A DNA stretch of 64,000 nt from Candidatus Kaiserbacteria bacterium (lineage in GTDB: Bacteria > Patescibacteriota > Minisyncoccia > Phycocordibacterales > UBA2100). The stretch spans positions 174,706 to 238,705 of the forward strand of contig JACPLC010000001.1 of assembly GCA_016186695.1 (NCBI GenBank). The letters are read 5' to 3'. Made by a program: the position numbers and the translations under genes. Every line of letters starts with the position of its first letter. Position 1 is the stretch's first letter. The notes beneath the pieces are model-generated. The model saw nothing but the letters and a program-made list of their open reading frames with translations. It ran no database searches and had not been told where the DNA came from. Of the stretch, positions 45,550 to 53,474 are shown in pieces.

Positions 45550-48500
45550 ATGCCCTCCTCTCGTGTTGCGGCAGGAGTTTTCCTGTTAGCTCCTCTTTTT
45601 TTGGCAGCGGTGCTCGTGCCGCTCCTTGCAGATGCTGCAGGCGATGTGTGTGATACGGCAAGCGAAGCGGCAAAGGGGAAGGTGACTAACGACTGCATCG
45701 CATGCATTACGGTCGTCGAGAACGGCCAACAAGTAAAGAAAGAAGTCGGTGCGATATGCAAAGTAACAGGCGGCGGTGATAAAACTGCCGCGAATTGTGT
45801 GCCCGGCACCAGCCCCACAAATCCTCCTCCCGGTACATGCAAGACGAAATATTGCGTCGGCACAAAATGTTTCGACGCAAATCTGACGACAAAGCCGACG
45901 GAAGGAAGCTGGATTCCGCAGAACACCTCGGACCTCTCGAAGCTCCACAACGACCTTTCGTGGGGAGGCGTGTCGGTGTCGCCGATTTCCTCTGATCAGA
46001 GTCCCATACCGGACAAGTCTTTCTTCGATTCCGCTCAATATTCTGGGTCGGATTTCCAAGGAGCAGACCCATTCAGTCAACCAGACGCGACATCGAAGTA
46101 TTTGCAAGATCTACAAGATCAAGTGGATCGGGCGCAGGCGAACACGCCGAATCCTTCACTCAATCAACCCGCGGAGCCGACAAATTATATTCAGGAAGCT
46201 CTCAGGCGACTGGGTGTCTCGTTTCCGGGCTTGGATGAGCAAGCTGCACAGCTCGAAGCGGTGAGCGATAAGAGTCAGCTGGAGCAGATGGCCAAGCAGC
46301 AGCCGGTTCCTACGCAGAGTACAGGCTTCACTGCATCGGAGATTGACACCAAGCCTCCTGCCGAGCCGGCATGGTTTGATTCTGCCCGCAGATGGATTGC
46401 TCAGCAATTGGGAATCGGGGCTGAGGCTGCAGTACCTAGATTGGTGCCAGACGGGAAAGGGGGTTACCGTCTAGCCCCCGGAACTAACTTTTCAGAAGCG
46501 GATAAAAATCCTCCCCGCTCTAGTGCGAATCAAATCCAAGGATTGGACGGCCCCGCCGTTTACAAGTCTACACATTATAAGAACCCCTCGGGTCTCACTG
46601 GTTCGGGAGCGAAATTTGATGATATTACAATAGCTTGCAATGCGTGTCCCATGGGAACGTCGGGCCAACTTGATTTTCTTGATAAAAGTGGAAATGTCGT
46701 CTACAGCAAACAAATGGTTGTGAAAGAGTGGGGTGACCTTCAGCCAGGAGTCGGAATTGATATTAATACACAAACTGTCCGCGATGCTCAAGCGAAAACG
46801 GGCATTCCTTTTTTGCAGGAAGGTGTCACAGGAACTACACACAGCGGAGGAGTGCGGTTCACACCCGAGGCCGTTTTTCAAGGACGAATTCCCGGTGATG
46901 GGTGGTATGCGGATCGTGCAGCCGTTCAAGTTGCAGAGCAGTACGCGAATGCGCGGAATGCGGGCTATTCTCCCGCTGAAGCCATATCGCAATTGACCAG
47001 TGGACAGGTCACCTACAAGTCGGCGTATGTTTTTGGCAGTGAAGTCCCTTCGCCATTTACGCTCGCGTCTGCAGCACCGGCGCCAAGCGACAGCTATGCG
47101 CCATCGTGGATCGCTTCGACGCCTGGCTTTATTGCTGCGAACACGGCCGGCTCACCAGATGTATCTCCGTTCTCTGCAACGTATGACATCACATCGTACG
47201 GTCCAGCCGCACCGCCTGCCAGCGAAAGTTATCTGCCATCGTGGATAGCGTCGATACCGGGGTTTGATAGCGGCGTCCCTTCTTACGTCACTCCTTTTTC
47301 GCCTAGTGCAGACATCGCCGAGTACGAACTATCGCCCGAATATTTCGGTCCGAGTGGAGCAGAAAACATTAGCGTAGTGTTGCCTGATCAATTTCCTGAC
47401 AGTTTGATGCACGGCGACACTGCTGAAGCGATGCGTCTGATCGAGGAAGGAGCTTTAGGAAAGTTGCCCGAGCCACAGATTGTTGCTCAATTGTCGGGTG
47501 GAACCACGCGGGGCATCGGCCTTTTGAGGTCAGATGCTTCAGGACTTCCTGCGAATTTCGATTCGTCCGCCTTTGATTCCGGAGTTTCTCTTACCCAGGA
47601 GGAAGTTCAGACGGCACTGGACACAGCTGAAGCCACGCGGCTTGCCGAGAGCGACGCGCTCGCTTCAGGGTTTCCAGGTCTTACTCCCCTTACTCCGCAG
47701 GAGATTTCGGATGCTTACGAACGGTATGGCAAAGAACAGGCGCGACTTGCTCTCGAAGGCTACAAGGCTCAAGACCTAGCACTCGATACTGGAAGCGGGA
47801 TAAGCTATCCGATAGATTGGGACAAACTCGCGTTCACCGACAGTGGATTCGACAAGCCGCAGGATTTTGCAGGCATAACGGCAGATGAATCCCAGCGTAC
47901 GACCCGCGATCTCGCAAATTTCACTATTGATGAGTCACAACGAACAGCTCCGTCAACACCATATGATGTCGCCGGAGTGAATGCCGATGAGTTTCAACGA
48001 ACGTCGCAGGATCTCGCGGCTATCACAGAAGACGAGTCTCAGCGAACAGCGCGGCAGGAACCAGACCTGCGAGGGATTACGGAGGATGAATCTCAACGAA
48101 CTGCTCCCCAAGAATCAAAGGTTGCCGATTTAACTAAGTGCGCAAGCGAGTCGTGTGTCGGGGGAGAGATAATAGGAGACGAAAGAAGTGTTCCTCTGAC
48201 AGATGAGCAGTTAGCCGCGAAGGTCGCGGCAGAGGAGGAACGAATTTTTAATGAAGAGCAAGCGCGACTCGCGCAGATCGTCGAGAAGGCACAAAAGGCA
48301 GGGGACGACGTTAAGGCGGCGGCGGAGAAAGTAAAAGCTGCAGGCAAAGATTTTCTTGCCGGAGGAAGCCCCCAAGGTTTAATTGATGCTGGAAATGAGC
48401 TTAAAGCGAAAGTGGCAGAATATGAGAAGGCGTACAAGGAACTGAAATCCTCGGGAGTACTCTCAAGCAGCGAACTAAAAAAAATTGATGCTGATCGAGC

Positions 48501-50268
48501 GTTAGTTCAGAACGACCTCAATGAAATCTCTACGTGGAAAGGGCGTCTTGAAACGGCTGTCAACGTAGCGAGTAAAGTATCAATTGCGGGGGACAGATTC
48601 GGCTCGACATTTGGAAATCCCGAGTTGGGTCGCCAAGCCTACGAGCAGGCGGTGGAGACTGTCAGACAAAACCTCAGGAAACCCGAAAATCAGGCGCAGA
48701 TCAATTCTGCAACTGAAAGAATCATGGGACCCGTAGGTCGATTGGCGGCGATTCCTTCGTACGAACCTAAGTCCTACGTCCCTCCGCCCTCGTCGGAACT
48801 TCAATTGGCTGCAAACCCCGGTGGCCCGACATTCGTGTTTACGGATCCGTACGAATCGACTTCCGACAGTCCACCACTCGACTTTTCTTCCGGAGCGGTT
48901 GCCCAAGAGACGCCTATTCCGCCGCTAAGTCTTGATTATGACGATTACGGATTGGCCGAAATCCGACAATACCAGGCCGAGCAAGCGGCATCCCAGTACG
49001 ATTCCTATGGCGACGAGGCAATTCGACAGTACTACGCCGAACAAATCAGAGAAAATCAGGAGGCCTACGTAGCATTCAGCAAAGTAGAGTTTCCCAAGAC
49101 TTGGCCGTATCCGATAAGCGAGATGCCCGACTACTTTGCGGAAAGTGGCCGCCCCACACCAGCGTTGTCCTTGCTCGACCAGTATGCAGAGGGTGGCGCG
49201 CCGGACTTGGCGCAGATCGCGCGCGACGCAGGGCTGGCACAGGAAGACTTGAGAGACTCAAGCTCTGGCCTGCTTTACCCTCCGGCTGAGAGTTCGGAAG
49301 AAAGAAAATGGCCGGTTCTCGTGTACACCGATCCAGACGCTGAATATAACGTAGCCGCGCAGAAAGCTGGGGAAGAACGTGCGATAGCTCTGGCGGACGC
49401 AGAAGAGAAATCCGCGTTCGATAGGTGGTACGAGAACCTTGTCTTGGATGGCAAATATGATCCGAGTCCATACGAAGTGCCGGCGGGAGCAGTCTCGCTT
49501 CCGGAGGAGATTTGGGATCGAGTAGCCCTCAATCGACCTTCGTCAGATCATGAGTCGGATGAACCATATCGACCCTCTTCCGAACCTGGGCGGGATGCGC
49601 CGAGCCCAGAATTTCTTAGGCAACAGGAACAAATTGCACTCGGCCTCAACCCATCTGAAGGATTCCAAAGGGGAGGTCTCGAGCCTGGCATTACTCCTAC
49701 CAAAGTTGTGCCTGAATTAGTATCGCGGCAAGTTCCAGAAAACATAGAATCGACGCAAGCCGATGGAACGCCAAAATCCCCTCTGTCGTTGGCTGCAGCG
49801 CAACCCTCGACAGCACCAACCAGATCTGCCGACGCGAAGCCTGTGGAGGCGCGCGCTCCGCTGCCGATCGAGGTCCCTACCGTTGGCGATGCGAAGACTC
49901 CATATGACTTGTGGGGGAAAGATCTGCCCTCCAAGGAAATTAGAAGCAAGTTGTACAACCAGCTTGCGGAGGAGGGATTTGTCAACGTCGAGCGCTACAC
50001 AGGAACGGGCGACCAGAACCGCGCTTTAATAGACGGCCTGAAAGAAAGACAGCAAGCGACTGCCGTTCCGAATCCCTATGCGCGCGCTCAGAAAGTCTAT
50101 TCGGAAGGAGATTCGATCGTTGACTTCTTGAGCGCAGGCAACATGAAGAGTGATTTTGGGAGCCGAAGATCGTTGTTCGACAGCGTGGTTGGCTACGGTA
50201 CGTATACCGGCACGGCGTCACAAAACCAAGCGCTTCTTGAACTCTTACGCAAGAGAGGAGATCAGTAA
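45550..50268 (+). CDS. Giant (1572 aa) secreted protein, hypothetical: N-terminal Cys-rich module, internal (D/E)ESQRT x5 repeats, coiled-coil segment, C-terminal tandem YTGTxxQNxAL motifs
   Basis: Signal peptide MPSSRVAAGVFLLAPLFLAAVLVPLLADA. Ten Cys in the first 90 mature residues. SYxPSWIASxPGF appears twice. ADESQRT, IDESQRT, ADEFQRT, EDESQRT and EDESQRT lie at about 47880..48110. The coiled-coil AAKVAAEEERIFNEEQARLAQIVEKAQKAG lies at about 48230..48330. The C-terminus carries YTGTGDQNRALIDGLKERQ and YTGTASQNQALLELLRKRG. GC is about 46-53% against about 60% for core genes. Confidence 0.75.
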   Translation: MPSSRVAAGVFLLAPLFLAAVLVPLLADAAGDVCDTASEAAKGKVTNDCIACITVVENGQQVKKEVGAICKVTGGGDKTAANCVPGTSPTNPPPGTCKTKYCVGTKCFDANLTTKPTEGSWIPQNTSDLSKLHNDLSWGGVSVSPISSDQSPIPDKSFFDSAQYSGSDFQGADPFSQPDATSKYLQDLQDQVDRAQANTPNPSLNQPAEPTNYIQEALRRLGVSFPGLDEQAAQLEAVSDKSQLEQMAKQQPVPTQSTGFTASEIDTKPPAEPAWFDSARRWIAQQLGIGAEAAVPRLVPDGKGGYRLAPGTNFSEADKNPPRSSANQIQGLDGPAVYKSTHYKNPSGLTGSGAKFDDITIACNACPMGTSGQLDFLDKSGNVVYSKQMVVKEWGDLQPGVGIDINTQTVRDAQAKTGIPFLQEGVTGTTHSGGVRFTPEAVFQGRIPGDGWYADRAAVQVAEQYANARNAGYSPAEAISQLTSGQVTYKSAYVFGSEVPSPFTLASAAPAPSDSYAPSWIASTPGFIAANTAGSPDVSPFSATYDITSYGPAAPPASESYLPSWIASIPGFDSGVPSYVTPFSPSADIAEYELSPEYFGPSGAENISVVLPDQFPDSLMHGDTAEAMRLIEEGALGKLPEPQIVAQLSGGTTRGIGLLRSDASGLPANFDSSAFDSGVSLTQEEVQTALDTAEATRLAESDALASGFPGLTPLTPQEISDAYERYGKEQARLALEGYKAQDLALDTGSGISYPIDWDKLAFTDSGFDKPQDFAGITADESQRTTRDLANFTIDESQRTAPSTPYDVAGVNADEFQRTSQDLAAITEDESQRTARQEPDLRGITEDESQRTAPQESKVADLTKCASESCVGGEIIGDERSVPLTDEQLAAKVAAEEERIFNEEQARLAQIVEKAQKAGDDVKAAAEKVKAAGKDFLAGGSPQGLIDAGNELKAKVAEYEKAYKELKSSGVLSSSELKKIDADRALVQNDLNEISTWKGRLETAVNVASKVSIAGDRFGSTFGNPELGRQAYEQAVETVRQNLRKPENQAQINSATERIMGPVGRLAAIPSYEPKSYVPPPSSELQLAANPGGPTFVFTDPYESTSDSPPLDFSSGAVAQETPIPPLSLDYDDYGLAEIRQYQAEQAASQYDSYGDEAIRQYYAEQIRENQEAYVAFSKVEFPKTWPYPISEMPDYFAESGRPTPALSLLDQYAEGGAPDLAQIARDAGLAQEDLRDSSSGLLYPPAESSEERKWPVLVYTDPDAEYNVAAQKAGEERAIALADAEEKSAFDRWYENLVLDGKYDPSPYEVPAGAVSLPEEIWDRVALNRPSSDHESDEPYRPSSEPGRDAPSPEFLRQQEQIALGLNPSEGFQRGGLEPGITPTKVVPELVSRQVPENIESTQADGTPKSPLSLAAAQPSTAPTRSADAKPVEARAPLPIEVPTVGDAKTPYDLWGKDLPSKEIRSKLYNQLAEEGFVNVERYTGTGDQNRALIDGLKERQQATAVPNPYARAQKVYSEGDSIVDFLSAGNMKSDFGSRRSLFDSVVGYGTYTGTASQNQALLELLRKRGDQ

Positions 50269-50345: not shown

Positions 50346-50909
50346 ATGACGACGACAGGGTGGATTATTTTTGGGATCGTGGCGGTGGGTGTGCTCTGGG
50401 TCATCTGGGCATACAATCGTTTCGTACAGCTTACCAATCGCTCGGAGGAGGCATGGTCTGACATCGACGTGCAGCTGAAGCGCCGCTACGACCTCATTCC
50501 AAATATCGTCGAGACGGTGAAAGGCTACATGCAGCACGAGGCGGGAACGCTCCAGAAGGTGACTGATGCCCGCACAAAGGCAATGGGTGCGCAGAGTGTC
50601 GGCGAGCACGCAGCCGCCGAGAACATGCTCACGGGTGCGCTGAAGACCCTGTTTGCGGTCGCAGAAAATTATCCCAACCTGAAGGCGAACGAGAACTTCG
50701 TAGAGCTCCAGCGAGAGCTTTCGGATACCGAGAACAAAATTCAGGCGGCACGTCGCTTCTACAACAGCGTCGTGATTGATCTGCAAAACGCACTCGAACA
50801 ATTTCCCACGAATCTCATCGGCAATACGTTTGGCTTCAAGACGCGCGAATTCTTCCAGCTCGAGGCAGGGGAGGAGGCTGCGCGCCAGCCGGTCAAGGTT
50901 AGTTTCTAG
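50346..50909 (+). CDS. lemA: LemA family membrane protein
   Basis: N-terminal TM GWIIFGIVAVGVLWVIWAYNRF, then the LemA helical signature (WSDIDVQLKRRYDLIPNIVETVKGYMQHE). Confidence 0.8.
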   Translation: MTTTGWIIFGIVAVGVLWVIWAYNRFVQLTNRSEEAWSDIDVQLKRRYDLIPNIVETVKGYMQHEAGTLQKVTDARTKAMGAQSVGEHAAAENMLTGALKTLFAVAENYPNLKANENFVELQRELSDTENKIQAARRFYNSVVIDLQNALEQFPTNLIGNTFGFKTREFFQLEAGEEAARQPVKVSF

Positions 50910-51501
50910 TAAGTCTCTTCGGGAGCGGGGGTGGATCAGCGTAGAACGTGTGTTTGCCAACCTCGCCCACGCGGACCAATGAGCGGAACATTGCTTTCGT
51001 CTTTTCACTCATGTGCGGATGAGGAGTCATCGCAAACTCATCCCAATCGGTGCGCTTATAGTAGTACGTACGTATCGGGATGCCAGTCAGCTTCGAAAAT
51101 TCTTGCACTACGTACGCAGGATCTTTTCCCTTAATGCGGCGGGCAAATATTGCCTTGAGTTCCGCGAGATCGTGCAACTCTTTTTGTGTGAGCGGAGGTG
51201 GCTCCTTAGTCCAAGAGAACTGATTCTTTGCAAACACCACTGCCGGAATTGTTGAACCGAATCGCTTCGAGAGAAGGCGCGCGAGCGTTACTTGGGCAAC
51301 CGCGAGCTGCCCTTTGGGCGATTCGCTGCGAGCCTCATAAAAAACATTCTCAGCGAGTACGTCGGTATCGAGAAAGGAGAGGTTTTCAGATTGCGCCTGC
51401 GGGGCCGATAGCGATCTGATGCTGATAGATTGTGCCGCTCCCTCACTTGGGGCGGCGCTCAGCGCTGCCGCTGTAAGCGCGATGCGCGCTCCTTTTTTCA
51501 T
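50899..51501 (-). CDS. SleB-family cell-wall hydrolase (Hydrolase_2 domain), secreted
   Basis: The ORF track gives a 400-aa ORF, 50899..52101, whose first 200 aa run antisense to htpX. Start reassigned to Met201 at 51501 (MKKGARIALTAAALSAAPSEGAAQS, a signal peptide). The domain reads ENVFYEARSESPKGQLAVAQVTLARL...GSTIPAVVFAKNQFSWT, the SleB/CwlJ pattern. Confidence 0.65.
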   Translation of the reverse strand: MKKGARIALTAAALSAAPSEGAAQSISIRSLSAPQAQSENLSFLDTDVLAENVFYEARSESPKGQLAVAQVTLARLLSKRFGSTIPAVVFAKNQFSWTKEPPPLTQKELHDLAELKAIFARRIKGKDPAYVVQEFSKLTGIPIRTYYYKRTDWDEFAMTPHPHMSEKTKAMFRSLVRVGEVGKHTFYADPPPLPKRLTRN

Positions 51502-51630
51502 GTCTTCTGCTGTCGGCGGTTTTCCGGATGAGGTCTCGTCAGTGACGAATGCCTTGGCAAGGTCTTTGAGATTCTTCGGACGCTCCGGCTCCATTCTCAT
51601 TTCCACTCGTCCAGTATACCGCGTTGCTTC

Positions 51631-52563
51631 ATGCTGGATTCCGATACTCCTTTCCAGTATCATTGCTTGCCTATGGCTTCTCTCTACACGGAACAAGGAA
51701 AAAACATCCGCCGCACGTGGCTTTTGATGACAGTTTTTCTCGTCATGATCATTGCGATCGGCTACTTCATCGGCTGGTATCTGAATGACCCCTCGATTCT
51801 CTACATCGCTATCGTCTTCTCGCTCTTTATGAATGTCACCGCCTACTGGTTCTCCGACAAGGTAGCGCTTGCCGCGACGGGCGCGAAGGAAGCCGACGAG
51901 CGGCAATATCGCGAGCTGCATCGCGTTCTCGAAAACCTTGCGATTACCGCGGGCCTCCCGAAGCCGCGACTCTACGTGATAGACGATCCTGCACCAAATG
52001 CATTTGCTGCCGGAAGAAATCCGAAGCACGCGGTTGTTGCGGTGACCACCGGCCTTCTTTCGCAGCTCGAACGTTCGGAATTGGAAGGGGTCATCGCGCA
52101 TGAACTCTCACACGTCGGGAATCGCGACATCTTGGTAATGACGGTCGCGGTTGTGCTTGCGGGATTCATCGCGATCATCGCTGACATCTTTCTGCGGGTG
52201 AGCTTCTTCGGGGGCAATAATCGCGAGGGGAGAAATCCGATTCTTGCAATAGCGGGAATTGTTGCCATCATTCTTGCGCCGTTTGCTGCACAGCTCATCC
52301 AGCTTGCAGTCTCACGCAAACGTGAGTTTTTGGCGGATGCTTCCGGCGCGCTCCTCACACGCTATCCCGACGCACTCGCTTCTGCGCTTCAGAAGATAAG
52401 TTCGTACCAAGCGCCGATGCGCCGTGCGAACCATGCGACCGCGCACCTCTTCATCTCAAACCCCTTTGGTGCACACGAAGCAGGAAAATTCATCGCAAGA
52501 ATTTTCTCGACTCACCCGCCGGTAGAGGAACGCATCGCCGCGCTCACGCAGATGCGAGTCTAG
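51631..52563 (+). CDS. htpX: Zinc metalloprotease HtpX (peptidase M48)
   Basis: Four TM helices. VIAHELSHVGNRD (HExxH) with a downstream E. C-terminal FSTHPPVEERIAAL is typical of HtpX. The true start may be Met 51673. Confidence 0.8.
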   Translation: MLDSDTPFQYHCLPMASLYTEQGKNIRRTWLLMTVFLVMIIAIGYFIGWYLNDPSILYIAIVFSLFMNVTAYWFSDKVALAATGAKEADERQYRELHRVLENLAITAGLPKPRLYVIDDPAPNAFAAGRNPKHAVVAVTTGLLSQLERSELEGVIAHELSHVGNRDILVMTVAVVLAGFIAIIADIFLRVSFFGGNNREGRNPILAIAGIVAIILAPFAAQLIQLAVSRKREFLADASGALLTRYPDALASALQKISSYQAPMRRANHATAHLFISNPFGAHEAGKFIARIFSTHPPVEERIAALTQMRV

Positions 52564-52599
52564 TTTTTTTGGAACCGATGTCTATGCGATATGTTCAAT

Positions 52600-52617
52600 A
52601 TGGCGATATATCGCCAT
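52600..52617. promoter_or_regulatory. Perfect 18-bp palindrome ATGGCGATATATCGCCAT (candidate operator), just downstream of the yerC-like stop
   Basis: Read directly; it is its own reverse complement. A near-identical copy is at 53041..53058. Confidence 0.5.
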
Positions 52618-52623
52618 GTCGAG

Positions 52624-53070
52624 TTAGCTAGGCTTCCGCCCTGTGCGCAACATATCGAGTCGTTTCTGATGTCTCGGGCCAGCTCTCGATGGAAGTCCTG
52701 CGGAGAGGAAGAGTTCAAGATAGTCCAGAAGAGAAAGATTCCTATTAAAGATACGGCAAAGAGGATCAAAGTGACCCGCGAGGAGTCTTCTATGAAGTCT
52801 TCGTACTGTTGACCGACTCACGTTTAGTGTTTGCTCGATGCGGTAGTACGACTCGTCCTTGTCCAGCATCAAGATAACTGCTAGCCGCTTTGCGAGCATG
52901 ATGCGCTCGGTTGACGTCAGGATTGAATATATTCGAGCCTTTCCACGAGTGGCGCTTGTGGAGAAGAGTGATCGCATGAAAGCTTCGACTATTTTTCGCT
53001 CAACACTCTGCGGAATCTTATATTTGGAAACATGGGTCATATGACGATATATCGCCATAGTACCATACAT
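52624..53070 (-). CDS. TrpR-like DNA-binding protein, YerC/YecD family
   Basis: ERIMLAKRLAVILMLDKDESYYRIEQTLNVSRSTVRRL matches the Trp-repressor-like HTH of YerC/YecD proteins. 148 aa. The N-terminus MYGTMAIYRHM is encoded by the palindrome. Confidence 0.55.
   Translation of the reverse strand: MYGTMAIYRHMTHVSKYKIPQSVERKIVEAFMRSLFSTSATRGKARIYSILTSTERIMLAKRLAVILMLDKDESYYRIEQTLNVSRSTVRRLHRRLLAGHFDPLCRIFNRNLSLLDYLELFLSAGLPSRAGPRHQKRLDMLRTGRKPS
53041..53058. promoter_or_regulatory. Near-perfect 18-bp palindrome ATGACGATATATCGCCAT (candidate operator) overlapping the yerC-like start codon
   Basis: 17 of 18 identical to 52600..52617. It overlaps the start region of the regulator gene on the minus strand. 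Confidence 0.5.
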
Positions 53071-53112
53071 TCATTGAGCAAAGGGGTGAATCTCTATATA
53101 CTCTTTATGTAC

Positions 53113-53197
53113 GGAGGGTTCGCATAGTGGTCTAGTGCGCCGCTTTGGAGAAGCGGTGTGCCGCAAGGCACCGAGAGTTCGAATCTCTCACCCTCCG
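53113..53197 (+). tRNA. tRNA-Ser (anticodon GGA), long variable arm
   Basis: GGAGGGT acceptor stem pairs with ACCCTCC, followed by discriminator G. D-loop AGTGGTCTAGT. Anticodon stem-loop CCGCT-TTGGAGA-AGCGG gives anticodon GGA. A 16-nt variable arm (TGTGCCGCAAGGCACC) and T-arm GAGAGTTCGAATCTCTC. No encoded CCA. The ORF track reports spurious ORFs 53135..53491 and 53145..53474 over it. Confidence 0.8.
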
Positions 53198-53204
53198 CCC
53201 CGAT

Positions 53205-53474
53205 ATGGAAGAACAGATTCAAAATCTAGAAAAAGAAATTGCTGCGCTCAAGGAGCGCAATCGGCGCGTGGAGGGAGACAAGGCGTGGGAGACGAGCTAC
53301 TTCAGGGTGAGCGTGGTAGCTATCATTGTCTACATCGTTGTTGCAATTTTCCTGTATGTCATTGGTGTGCAAAACTTTCTCCTTGCCGCACTCGTGCCAC
53401 CGGTCGGTTATTTTCTCTCAACGCGTTCGCTGCCGGCGATCAAGCGCTGGTGGATAAAAACTTTTTTGCAGTAG
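53205..53474 (+). CDS. Small membrane protein (coiled-coil N-terminus plus two TM helices), hypothetical
   Basis: In-frame internal Met of ORF 53145..53474, chosen to lie just past the tRNA. MEEQIQNLEKEIAALKERNRRVEGDKAW then VSVVAIIVYIVVAIFLYVIGV and LLAALVPPVGYFL. Confidence 0.4.
   Translation: MEEQIQNLEKEIAALKERNRRVEGDKAWETSYFRVSVVAIIVYIVVAIFLYVIGVQNFLLAALVPPVGYFLSTRSLPAIKRWWIKTFLQ

Follow-up and report, generated by a model that had tools for sequence, protein, structure and literature searches.

The 64,000-nt stretch of a Candidatus Kaiserbacteria genome analyzed here (positions 174,706 to 238,705 of contig JACPLC010000001.1; hereafter the window) carries, on its minus strand at 52624..53040, a gene for a helix-turn-helix (HTH) protein of the TrpR family (Pfam PF01371; 138 aa when counted from a start at MTHVSK, with the stop codon at 52624-52626), and this regulator gene is bracketed by two near-identical palindromes. 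On one side lies htpX, which encodes an M48 peptidase and is convergent with the regulator (51631..52563, plus strand; Pfam PF01435, E = 3.6e-37), and on the other a divergently oriented tRNA-Ser(GGA) gene (53112..53200, plus strand; called by ARAGORN, with an Rfam tRNA score of 54 bits). As we argue below, the palindromes are probably operators for the protein encoded between them.

The 3' copy, ATGGCGATATATCGCCAT at 52600..52617, is a perfect 18-bp palindrome situated between the convergent regulator and htpX genes, its end 6 nt from the regulator's stop codon. The 5' copy, ATGACGATATATCGCCAT at 53041..53058, is palindromic at 17 of 18 positions, differs from the other copy by one base (G to A at 53044), and lies directly upstream of the start codon. 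The positions of both copies, their perfect and one-mismatch status, and the 6-bp distance from the stop had been given in an earlier prediction made from the sequence (hereafter the original prediction), and all of these hold. Written as a direct repeat, the pair spans 20 nt (52598-52617 and 53039-53058, 95% identity, 441 bp apart), and the 3' palindrome can be extended imperfectly to 52595-52622. A search of the whole window with up to 3 mismatches allowed returned these two matches only, against a chance expectation of 0.03, and none of 100 shuffled sequences reached two or more; further weak sites in the 64 kb, sought as 12-mers with up to 2 mismatches, occurred at chance level. The original prediction also remarked that the palindromes encode MAIYRH on both strands, which is true of the perfect copy but not of the second, whose plus strand reads MTIYRH; the peptide is in any case a trivial consequence of the palindrome.

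The longest open reading frame (ORF) of the regulator starts at 53070 and encodes 148 aa. A protein search returned 59 relatives, mostly 138-141 aa long, the named ones belonging to Candidatus Kaiserbacteria or the Patescibacteria group; almost every aligned sequence begins at M-T/P-H-V/I-S-K, which corresponds to residue 11 (M11) of the 148-aa ORF. Because most homologs are 138-141 aa long and begin at MTHVSK, the true start is most likely the ATG at 53040, the longer ORF being over-called, and the 5' palindrome would therefore lie immediately upstream of the start codon, not inside the gene. The overlap of this palindrome with the start region of the regulator, as originally described, is thus replaced by a simple abutment on the start codon at 53040. 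A few close relatives are annotated with a MAIYRH N-terminal extension, which shows only that the same palindrome lies upstream of their genes.

Against the Pfam Trp_repressor model PF01371, the regulator scores 31.8 bits, above the cut-off of 27 (E = 1.6e-7), and all listed homologs carry this domain, whereas against TIGR02531 (YerC/YecD) it scores 20.7 bits where the cut-off is 42.2. The original label of a TrpR/YerC-like protein can accordingly be kept for the TrpR family but not for YerC/YecD. A profile search of the PDB matched 3kor, 3g1c, and 3frw (E = 5e-7 to 2e-6). The AlphaFold2 (AF2) model of the regulator is helical, with a pLDDT of 72, and its top 20 Foldseek matches in the PDB are TrpR and HisR structures, with probabilities of 0.97-1.0 and target-normalized TM scores of 0.55-0.70, the E-values being only 0.1-1; the fold predicted by the model is TrpR-like and all-helical, with an HTH. 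A conserved C-terminal extension of ~45 aa, also predicted to be helical, is found in neither TrpR nor HisR. The gene is single-copy in the window, no paralogs having been found in its 64 kb, and a Pfam scan of the protein found no catalytic or transposase domain. When 1.8 billion representatives were searched with a profile, 1,290 clusters (50% identity) were recovered at E <= 1e-10, and nearly all of the 150 best entries listed are 128-163 aa long. The best explanation is a Patescibacteria-wide regulator subfamily distinct from YerC/HisR, and our literature search found no paper describing either this TrpR subfamily in the Candidate Phyla Radiation (CPR) or the operator bracket.

The 5' copy is closely joined to a promoter. 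An extended -10 of the form TGnTAnnAT, TGGTACTAT, lies at 53060..53068 on the minus strand (read 53068-53060), and the motif stands in the same register before the 5' copy in Kaiserbacteria-type loci, as TGGTAGTAT in the nearest relatives and as TGGTA(C/G)TAT in the form conserved across the clade; no convincing -35 was seen for the regulator promoter. The 5' operator copy starts 2 nt inside the extended -10, covering its last 2 nt, and extends to the start codon. Transcription of the regulator is predicted from these positions to start inside the palindrome, near 53051-53054 on the minus strand, so that the leader would be only ~10 nt long, and a start placed in this way is in the classic position for promoter occlusion. 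The original proposal of autoregulation at the 5' site gains from this arrangement, since the copy abuts a conserved extended -10 and is placed for autorepression. Across families, we counted occurrences of TGNTANNNT (the extended -10 TGnTAnnnT) ending 5-14 nt 5' of the palindrome center, and found 17 in sense versus 2 in antisense at 66 distinct 5' copies, and 2 in sense and none in antisense at the 3' copies. With the motif essentially absent from the 3' copy, an antisense or downstream promoter there is ruled out, the TCATATATGA lineage (described below) excepted.

The same bracket is found in most relatives. A scan of one genome per species yielded 269 relatives, with 80 loci kept, and we counted the bracket wherever the gene call was usable (the window and 79 genome loci, 80 in total), taking the palindromes on the two sides to be the same when at least 12 of the 14 central nucleotides are identical. 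At 68 of the 80 loci, distributed across Patescibacteria, the same palindrome closely precedes the start codon and closely follows the stop codon; its center mostly lies 9-30 nt from the ATG on the one side and 2-70 nt from the stop on the other. Among the 13 closest loci, a palindrome with the core CGATATATCG stands upstream of the start in all 13 and after the stop in 12. The core differs by lineage (CGATA/TATCG, TGATA/TATCA, TCATA/TATGA, CGATT/AATCG, and others), and the outer arms vary between lineages as well; the two copies within one locus agree. In relatives at 85-88% identity, both copies are kept, with sporadic single mismatches in either, and the 5' copy occurs there in perfect form. 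The surroundings of the gene are also conserved: 12 of the 13 closest loci have the tRNA-Ser(GGA) gene upstream in divergent orientation, Kaiserbacteria-type loci have a convergent M48 peptidase gene downstream, and at protein identities from 88% to as low as 37% the gene order tRNA-Ser(GGA), regulator, htpX persists.

Changes in the palindrome from lineage to lineage track the recognition helix of the protein. CGATA half-sites are found with the helix motif V-S-x-S-T, TGATA with x-Q-T, and TCATA with M-S-[PY]-x-T. Where the half-site is CGATA, the bases at -7/-6 follow the residue at x: TA for P (24 of 24 cases), GG for G, TG for I, and CG for D. Mutual information is highest, at 1.0-1.1 bits, for x paired with bases -7/-6, and a second peak joins the next helix position to bases -5/-4; for both peaks, none of 1000 shuffles reached the observed value. 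Among nearest-neighbor protein pairs, sharing of x goes together with sharing of -7/-6 (26/3/8/16, Fisher p = 3e-5). Because shared ancestry inflates the association, the covariation is strong support, and not proof, for the protein reading the palindrome, and it speaks for the original suggestion that the palindromes are the cognate operators of a dimeric HTH protein.

The presence of the promoter motif beside the 5' copy only, and the lineage-wise change of the palindrome with the recognition helix, therefore support the reading to which we assign a probability of roughly 0.6, namely, that the two palindromes are the own operators of a dimeric TrpR-family repressor with negative autoregulation. 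In such a scheme, the HTH repressor would bind both palindromes as high-affinity operators. Bound at the 5' operator (53041-53058), it would cover the transcription start and the very short leader and would thereby keep RNA polymerase off the promoter, so that the gene would be negatively autoregulated; bound at the second site, the 3' operator (52600-52617), it would stop read-through out of the regulator gene and convergent read-through into it, and it may also act there cooperatively with the 5' site. Binding of the protein to the sites, the repression itself, and the role of the 3' site are steps that we infer, and control of the regulator by a ligand would follow by analogy with tryptophan for TrpR and histidine for HisR.

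YerC of B. subtilis is HisR, a histidine-dependent repressor that uses 20-bp palindromic operators with a lineage-specific consensus, and about half of hisR genes have an upstream site; TrpR operators are 20-bp palindromes too, and trpR likewise has an operator at its own promoter (PMC9413887). The system described here resembles both in its small helical HTH protein with the TrpR fold, in its putative palindromic operator of ~20 bp with a lineage-specific consensus, and in the position of one such operator at the regulator's own promoter, and its palindromes of 18-24 bp at the gene, which covary with the recognition helix, would be in keeping with TrpR-type operators. It differs from them in that the regulator, at 138 aa, is ~40 aa longer, with the C-terminal extension of ~45 aa, and falls below the cut-off of the YerC/YecD model; in that most members of the family have another, identical operator after the stop codon; and in that sites occur inside coding regions in relatives. 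Neither by its operator consensus nor by sites at his genes can it be identified with HisR: the core is CGATATATCG, whereas HisR has the motif cacTTTAnnnnnnTAAAgtg and TrpR the motif TGTAcTnGTnnACnAgTACA, and among the genes noted beside the sites examined (Dus, GNAT, SIS, aminoacyl-tRNA synthetases, RsmA, and others) there are no his or trp genes.

Sites away from the regulator gene were found in relatives through a metagenome scan, for which the query, TAKGGCGATATATCGCCMTA, covered both the 3' 20-mer of the window extended to full symmetry, from which the window itself differs at one end base, and the GGG variant found in close relatives. The scan returned 62 stretches, of which 9 adjoin the regulator gene, 14 represent an unrelated AT-rich element, and the rest come from Kaiserbacteria-like contigs. 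One genome (Ga0075997), whose regulator is identical to that of L005, has two regulator sites and four perfect sites on other contigs. Some of the solitary sites lie 20-90 nt 5' of genes (for Dus, a GNAT acetyltransferase, a SIS-domain protein, and DUF5654), and others lie between convergent genes (L28 and a metallo-beta-lactamase (MBL)-fold protein; HAD and a 90-aa ORF). A third group stands in frame inside coding regions, namely, those for LeuRS, ArgRS, a GlyRS-like class II synthetase, RsmA, Sua5, the N-terminus of ThrC, a reverse transcriptase, a beta-lactamase-fold protein, and YbaK. Perfect copies, 18-28 bp long, of the operator palindrome of the respective lineage occur in conserved housekeeping genes, namely, those for LeuRS (L092 and L126), ArgRS (L102 and L028), the GlyRS-like protein (L099), RsmA (L106 and L136), Sua5 (L101), the ThrC N-terminus (L138), and YbaK (L016, 2693-2720). 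Orthologs on different contigs have the 20-mer intact and diverged flanks. One of the ArgRS sites lies over a conserved LNxAIY segment, with a 2-aa length difference, and another (L028) is at a 7-aa insertion in a variable loop. We note in passing that the intragenic palindromes encode peptides such as IGRYIAL, NRAIYRPI, and YGDISPY, and that many of the host genes are translation-related. Further genomic copies, which according to the original prediction would define the regulon, do therefore exist on other contigs of relatives with a closely related 20-mer, but there are none beyond the two in the window's own 64 kb. Judged by their placement, the extra sites in relatives would fit a small regulon or a set of roadblocks.

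Several observations weigh against operators with autorepression. A TrpR-type operator needs 20 bp, yet many copies form perfect palindromes of 24-40 bp, and at some loci (e.g., L015) the outer arms differ between the two copies, each of them still palindromic; such long or arm-divergent palindromes hint at a further constraint from hairpin or cruciform formation, or at mutational correction of the palindrome. Our explanation covers the intragenic sites, and the long perfect arms of some relatives, only in part. The covariation, as noted, is in part confounded by shared ancestry. One relative has a site 3' of its HAD gene that is absent at the HAD ortholog of the window, and the window genome has only the two gene-flanking copies in 64 kb; membership of the regulon would therefore be fluid and is unproven for the window genome. 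The role of the 3' copy as a protein roadblock or insulator, for which we have its position and the intragenic and convergent-gene sites of relatives, is a tentative assignment that we put at clearly less than even odds.

What lies downstream of the 3' copy varies: the neighbor is convergent in 39 loci and co-directional in 27, and it belongs to many families (HtpX in 6, GyrB in 5, ArgRS in 5, RNase J in 4, and others). By this comparison, the 3' copy is a property of the regulator's own 3' end and not specific to htpX, and the original idea that it gates read-through at htpX finds no support, given this range of neighbors and given the weak hairpin and T7 run that htpX itself has at 52543-52572, ahead of the 3' palindrome. 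Roadblock repression is known for CodY and CcpA of B. subtilis and, at intragenic sites, for PurR of E. coli. The sites considered here resemble those systems in their placement within or downstream of coding regions, at points where elongation alone can be influenced, and differ in that the intragenic sites are perfect 20-bp palindromes and that the block to elongation is putative.

Although we favor a roadblock or insulator for the 3' copy, the main alternative is autoregulation by looping, in which dimers at the 5' and 3' operators would associate, perhaps through the ~45-aa extension, and a loop of ~440 bp would tighten autorepression. We regard this as possible, if on balance rather unlikely. 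In its favor are the two identical sites that flank the gene at the 68 bracketed loci, spaced 419-726 bp from center to center in the paired loci, and the conserved, predicted helical C-terminal extension that TrpR and HisR lack. The spacing, however, shows no helical phasing (the largest Rayleigh n*R^2 was 2.05 over periods of 9.5-12 bp), in a test that has little power because phasing is expected to be weak at this distance, and looping does not account for the solitary sites inside genes and between convergent genes. Operators on both sides that act by looping are known from lambda CI (OR and OL) and from LacI (O1, O2, and O3). The likeness to these lies in near-identical operators upstream and downstream of the regulated unit, hundreds of base pairs apart; the differences are another fold, the lack of helical phasing in our data, a downstream site tied to the stop codon of a 0.4-kb gene, and an oligomerization that is here only putative.

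A different view is that some ten perfect palindromes per genome, including the two at the regulator's own gene, are chromosomal architectural or positional sites serving nucleoid organization, segregation, or division control, following the logic of parS, matS, NBS, and SBS. Perfect 20-mers are kept inside the genes for LeuRS, ArgRS, the GlyRS-like protein, RsmA, Sua5, and ThrC and between convergent genes as the flanks diverge; there are several sites per genome on different contigs; and there are sites at the binding protein's own gene, as in B. subtilis, where the parB (spo0J) gene itself carries sites. The systems of parS/ParB, matS/MatP, and NBS/Noc are similar in having a small set of perfect palindromes per genome, many of them intragenic and some in or near the gene of the binder, but the binder considered here has a TrpR-like fold, unrelated to that of ParB and not like MatP or TetR. 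Moreover, the 5' copy is fused to a promoter, in fixed register with the extended -10, several of the solitary sites lie 20-90 nt 5' of genes, and the paralog-bearing genomes L014, L016, and L062 have different palindromes and apparent cross-sites that resemble a regulator network. An architectural role thus strikes us as unlikely.

It is more improbable still that the palindromes act as hairpins independently of any protein, with the 3' copy as a terminator or mRNA-stabilizing stem-loop and the 5' copy as a leader stem that masks the start codon. In 48-nt contexts the predicted folds are stable, at -12.9 to -14.1 kcal/mol (the 3' copy, read in sense, has z = -3.45), and the perfect palindromes of 24-40 bp in many relatives, some with differing arms that stay paired, would also suit a structural role. 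Against this, at least 5 T within 8 nt of the 3' edge occur at only 2 of 68 3' copies, and the internal mismatches of 3' copies, read on the sense strand (4 G.U, 4 A.C, and 8 other), show no preference for G.U. At the 3' copy of the window there is no T-run and a terminator scan makes no call, and no Rfam family matches the palindromes; a canonical terminator or RNA hairpin was rejected on these grounds. The full 5' stem would remain untranscribed because the conserved -10 would start transcription inside the 5' palindrome, and the covariation of half-site bases with protein residues is likewise contrary to a role without protein.

That the palindromes are the ends of a small mobile cassette or a miniature inverted-repeat transposable element (MITE)-like element carrying the regulator, as was originally entertained, is highly implausible: near-identical repeats do bound a single small gene, the HTH of the protein is weakly similar to the N-termini of IS630-type transposases (19 bits, where the cut-off is 100), and the ArgRS palindrome in L028 coincides with the 7-aa insertion, but the idea fails on the context of tRNA-Ser(GGA), regulator, and htpX, which is conserved in 12 of the 13 closest loci, in the relatives at 85-88% identity, and on down to 37%, on the single gene copy and the mere two palindromes in 64 kb, where a MITE-like element would be found in many places, on the lack of catalytic or transposase domains, on our finding no relatives of the regulator in a viral contig collection, and on each end being self-palindromic rather than one arm of a terminal inverted repeat.

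A bolder extension of the operator reading, which we offer as a speculation and consider doubtful, is that this protein is the most widespread sequence-specific regulator of Patescibacteria (~1,290 clusters at 50% identity), a ligand-sensing roadblock or insulator that would work mainly from perfect palindromes located at gene ends and within genes rather than from classical promoter operators, bracket its own gene, and target the translation apparatus. Relevant to this are the sites inside the genes for LeuRS, ArgRS, the GlyRS-like protein, RsmA, Sua5, and YbaK, 5' of Dus, and beside tRNA genes, as well as the position of the regulator gene next to ArgRS, ThrRS, or tRNA-Ser, depending on the lineage. 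If it were true, reduced genomes would gain a global control of translation capacity, and a DNA-recognition code could be read directly from the V-S-x-S-T helix motif. To our knowledge, almost nothing is known of gene regulation in CPR/Patescibacteria, as nearly all of them are uncultured. The locus offers a testable pair of protein and operator, with more than 60 natural variants that pair a recognition-helix residue with half-site bases, in an unusual and conserved architecture of identical operators at both ends of a regulator gene, and the sites inside essential translation genes of relatives hint at regulation by roadblock. Purified protein and synthetic DNA would suffice for in vitro tests of all this, with no need for culturing.

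We also recorded a number of features that touch on the regulator and its sites in particular lineages. An ArgRS gene lies immediately downstream of the regulator in L022, L024, L028, L035, and L036 and is second downstream in L030, a ThrRS gene lies upstream of it in L015 and its cluster, and in several lineages the operator stands between the regulator and an adjacent aminoacyl-tRNA synthetase gene. Synthetases make up ~10 of 150 immediate neighbors versus roughly 4-5 expected, the expectation coming from our own estimate of gene content; this enrichment beside the regulator is suggestive only, and the loci are not phylogenetically independent. In the TCATATATGA lineage (L031, L037, L039, L043, L048, L066, L068, L071, and L075), the palindrome is ~30 bp long, CTTAnnnTATCATATATGATAnnnTAAG, and in the 5' copies as well as the 3' copies its right arm holds TGnTAnnnT, which resembles an extended -10; going by this motif, the 3' copy of that lineage could also drive the downstream gene. 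Genomes with multiple paralogs show mixed sites (L016/L017, 4946-5475; L062, 4889-5500; L014, 5500-5570). The order in L016 is type B, type A, gene, type B; in L062, the halves of the 3' site match two different upstream palindromes; and in L014, a TGATA-type palindrome adjoins the locus's own CGATA-type 3' site. The mixed sites suggest possible cross-regulation or heterodimers among paralogs. The AT-rich element found in the metagenome scan is shared by 14 contigs (L082, L086, L090, L091, L093, L098, L105, L110, L117, L118, L123, L132, L134, and L141), of which at least L082 is labeled human gut, and in it TAGGGCGATATATCGCCCTA stands 61 nt upstream of a 79-aa Cro/C1-type HTH gene; it is probably unrelated, with the same palindromic 20-mer by coincidence.

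As for the surroundings of the bracket, no switch at the locus is seen in the GC skew of the window, which is uninformative on origin or terminus context. A promoter-like site for the tRNA-Ser gene, TTGAGC-17-TATACT (53074..53102, plus strand), was found by consensus scan, and its TATACT and TTGAGA elements are conserved in relatives; it begins 16 bp past the 5' palindrome, and the center of the 5' operator is ~60 bp upstream of the predicted tRNA-Ser transcription start. On the other side, the 5' part of htpX is overlapped by a 400-aa ORF (50899-52101, minus strand) whose call probably extends too far; there is a weak resemblance to SleB-type cell-wall hydrolases in its 3' part (~50899-51714), and the relative L145 has a Hydrolase_2 gene in the same place. 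Given this hydrolase-like ORF, htpX too may start later than the called position 51631. Elsewhere in the window, a 1,572-aa ORF (45550-50268, plus strand) with a signal-peptide-like N-terminus and a run of short repeats with DESQRT lies upstream of LemA (50346-50909). Directly after the tRNA-Ser gene, 53205-53474 (plus strand) encodes an 89-aa predicted membrane protein of no confident family with a coiled N-terminal part, and at the corresponding position, the close relatives L144 and L145 have a 110-aa gene of similar size.

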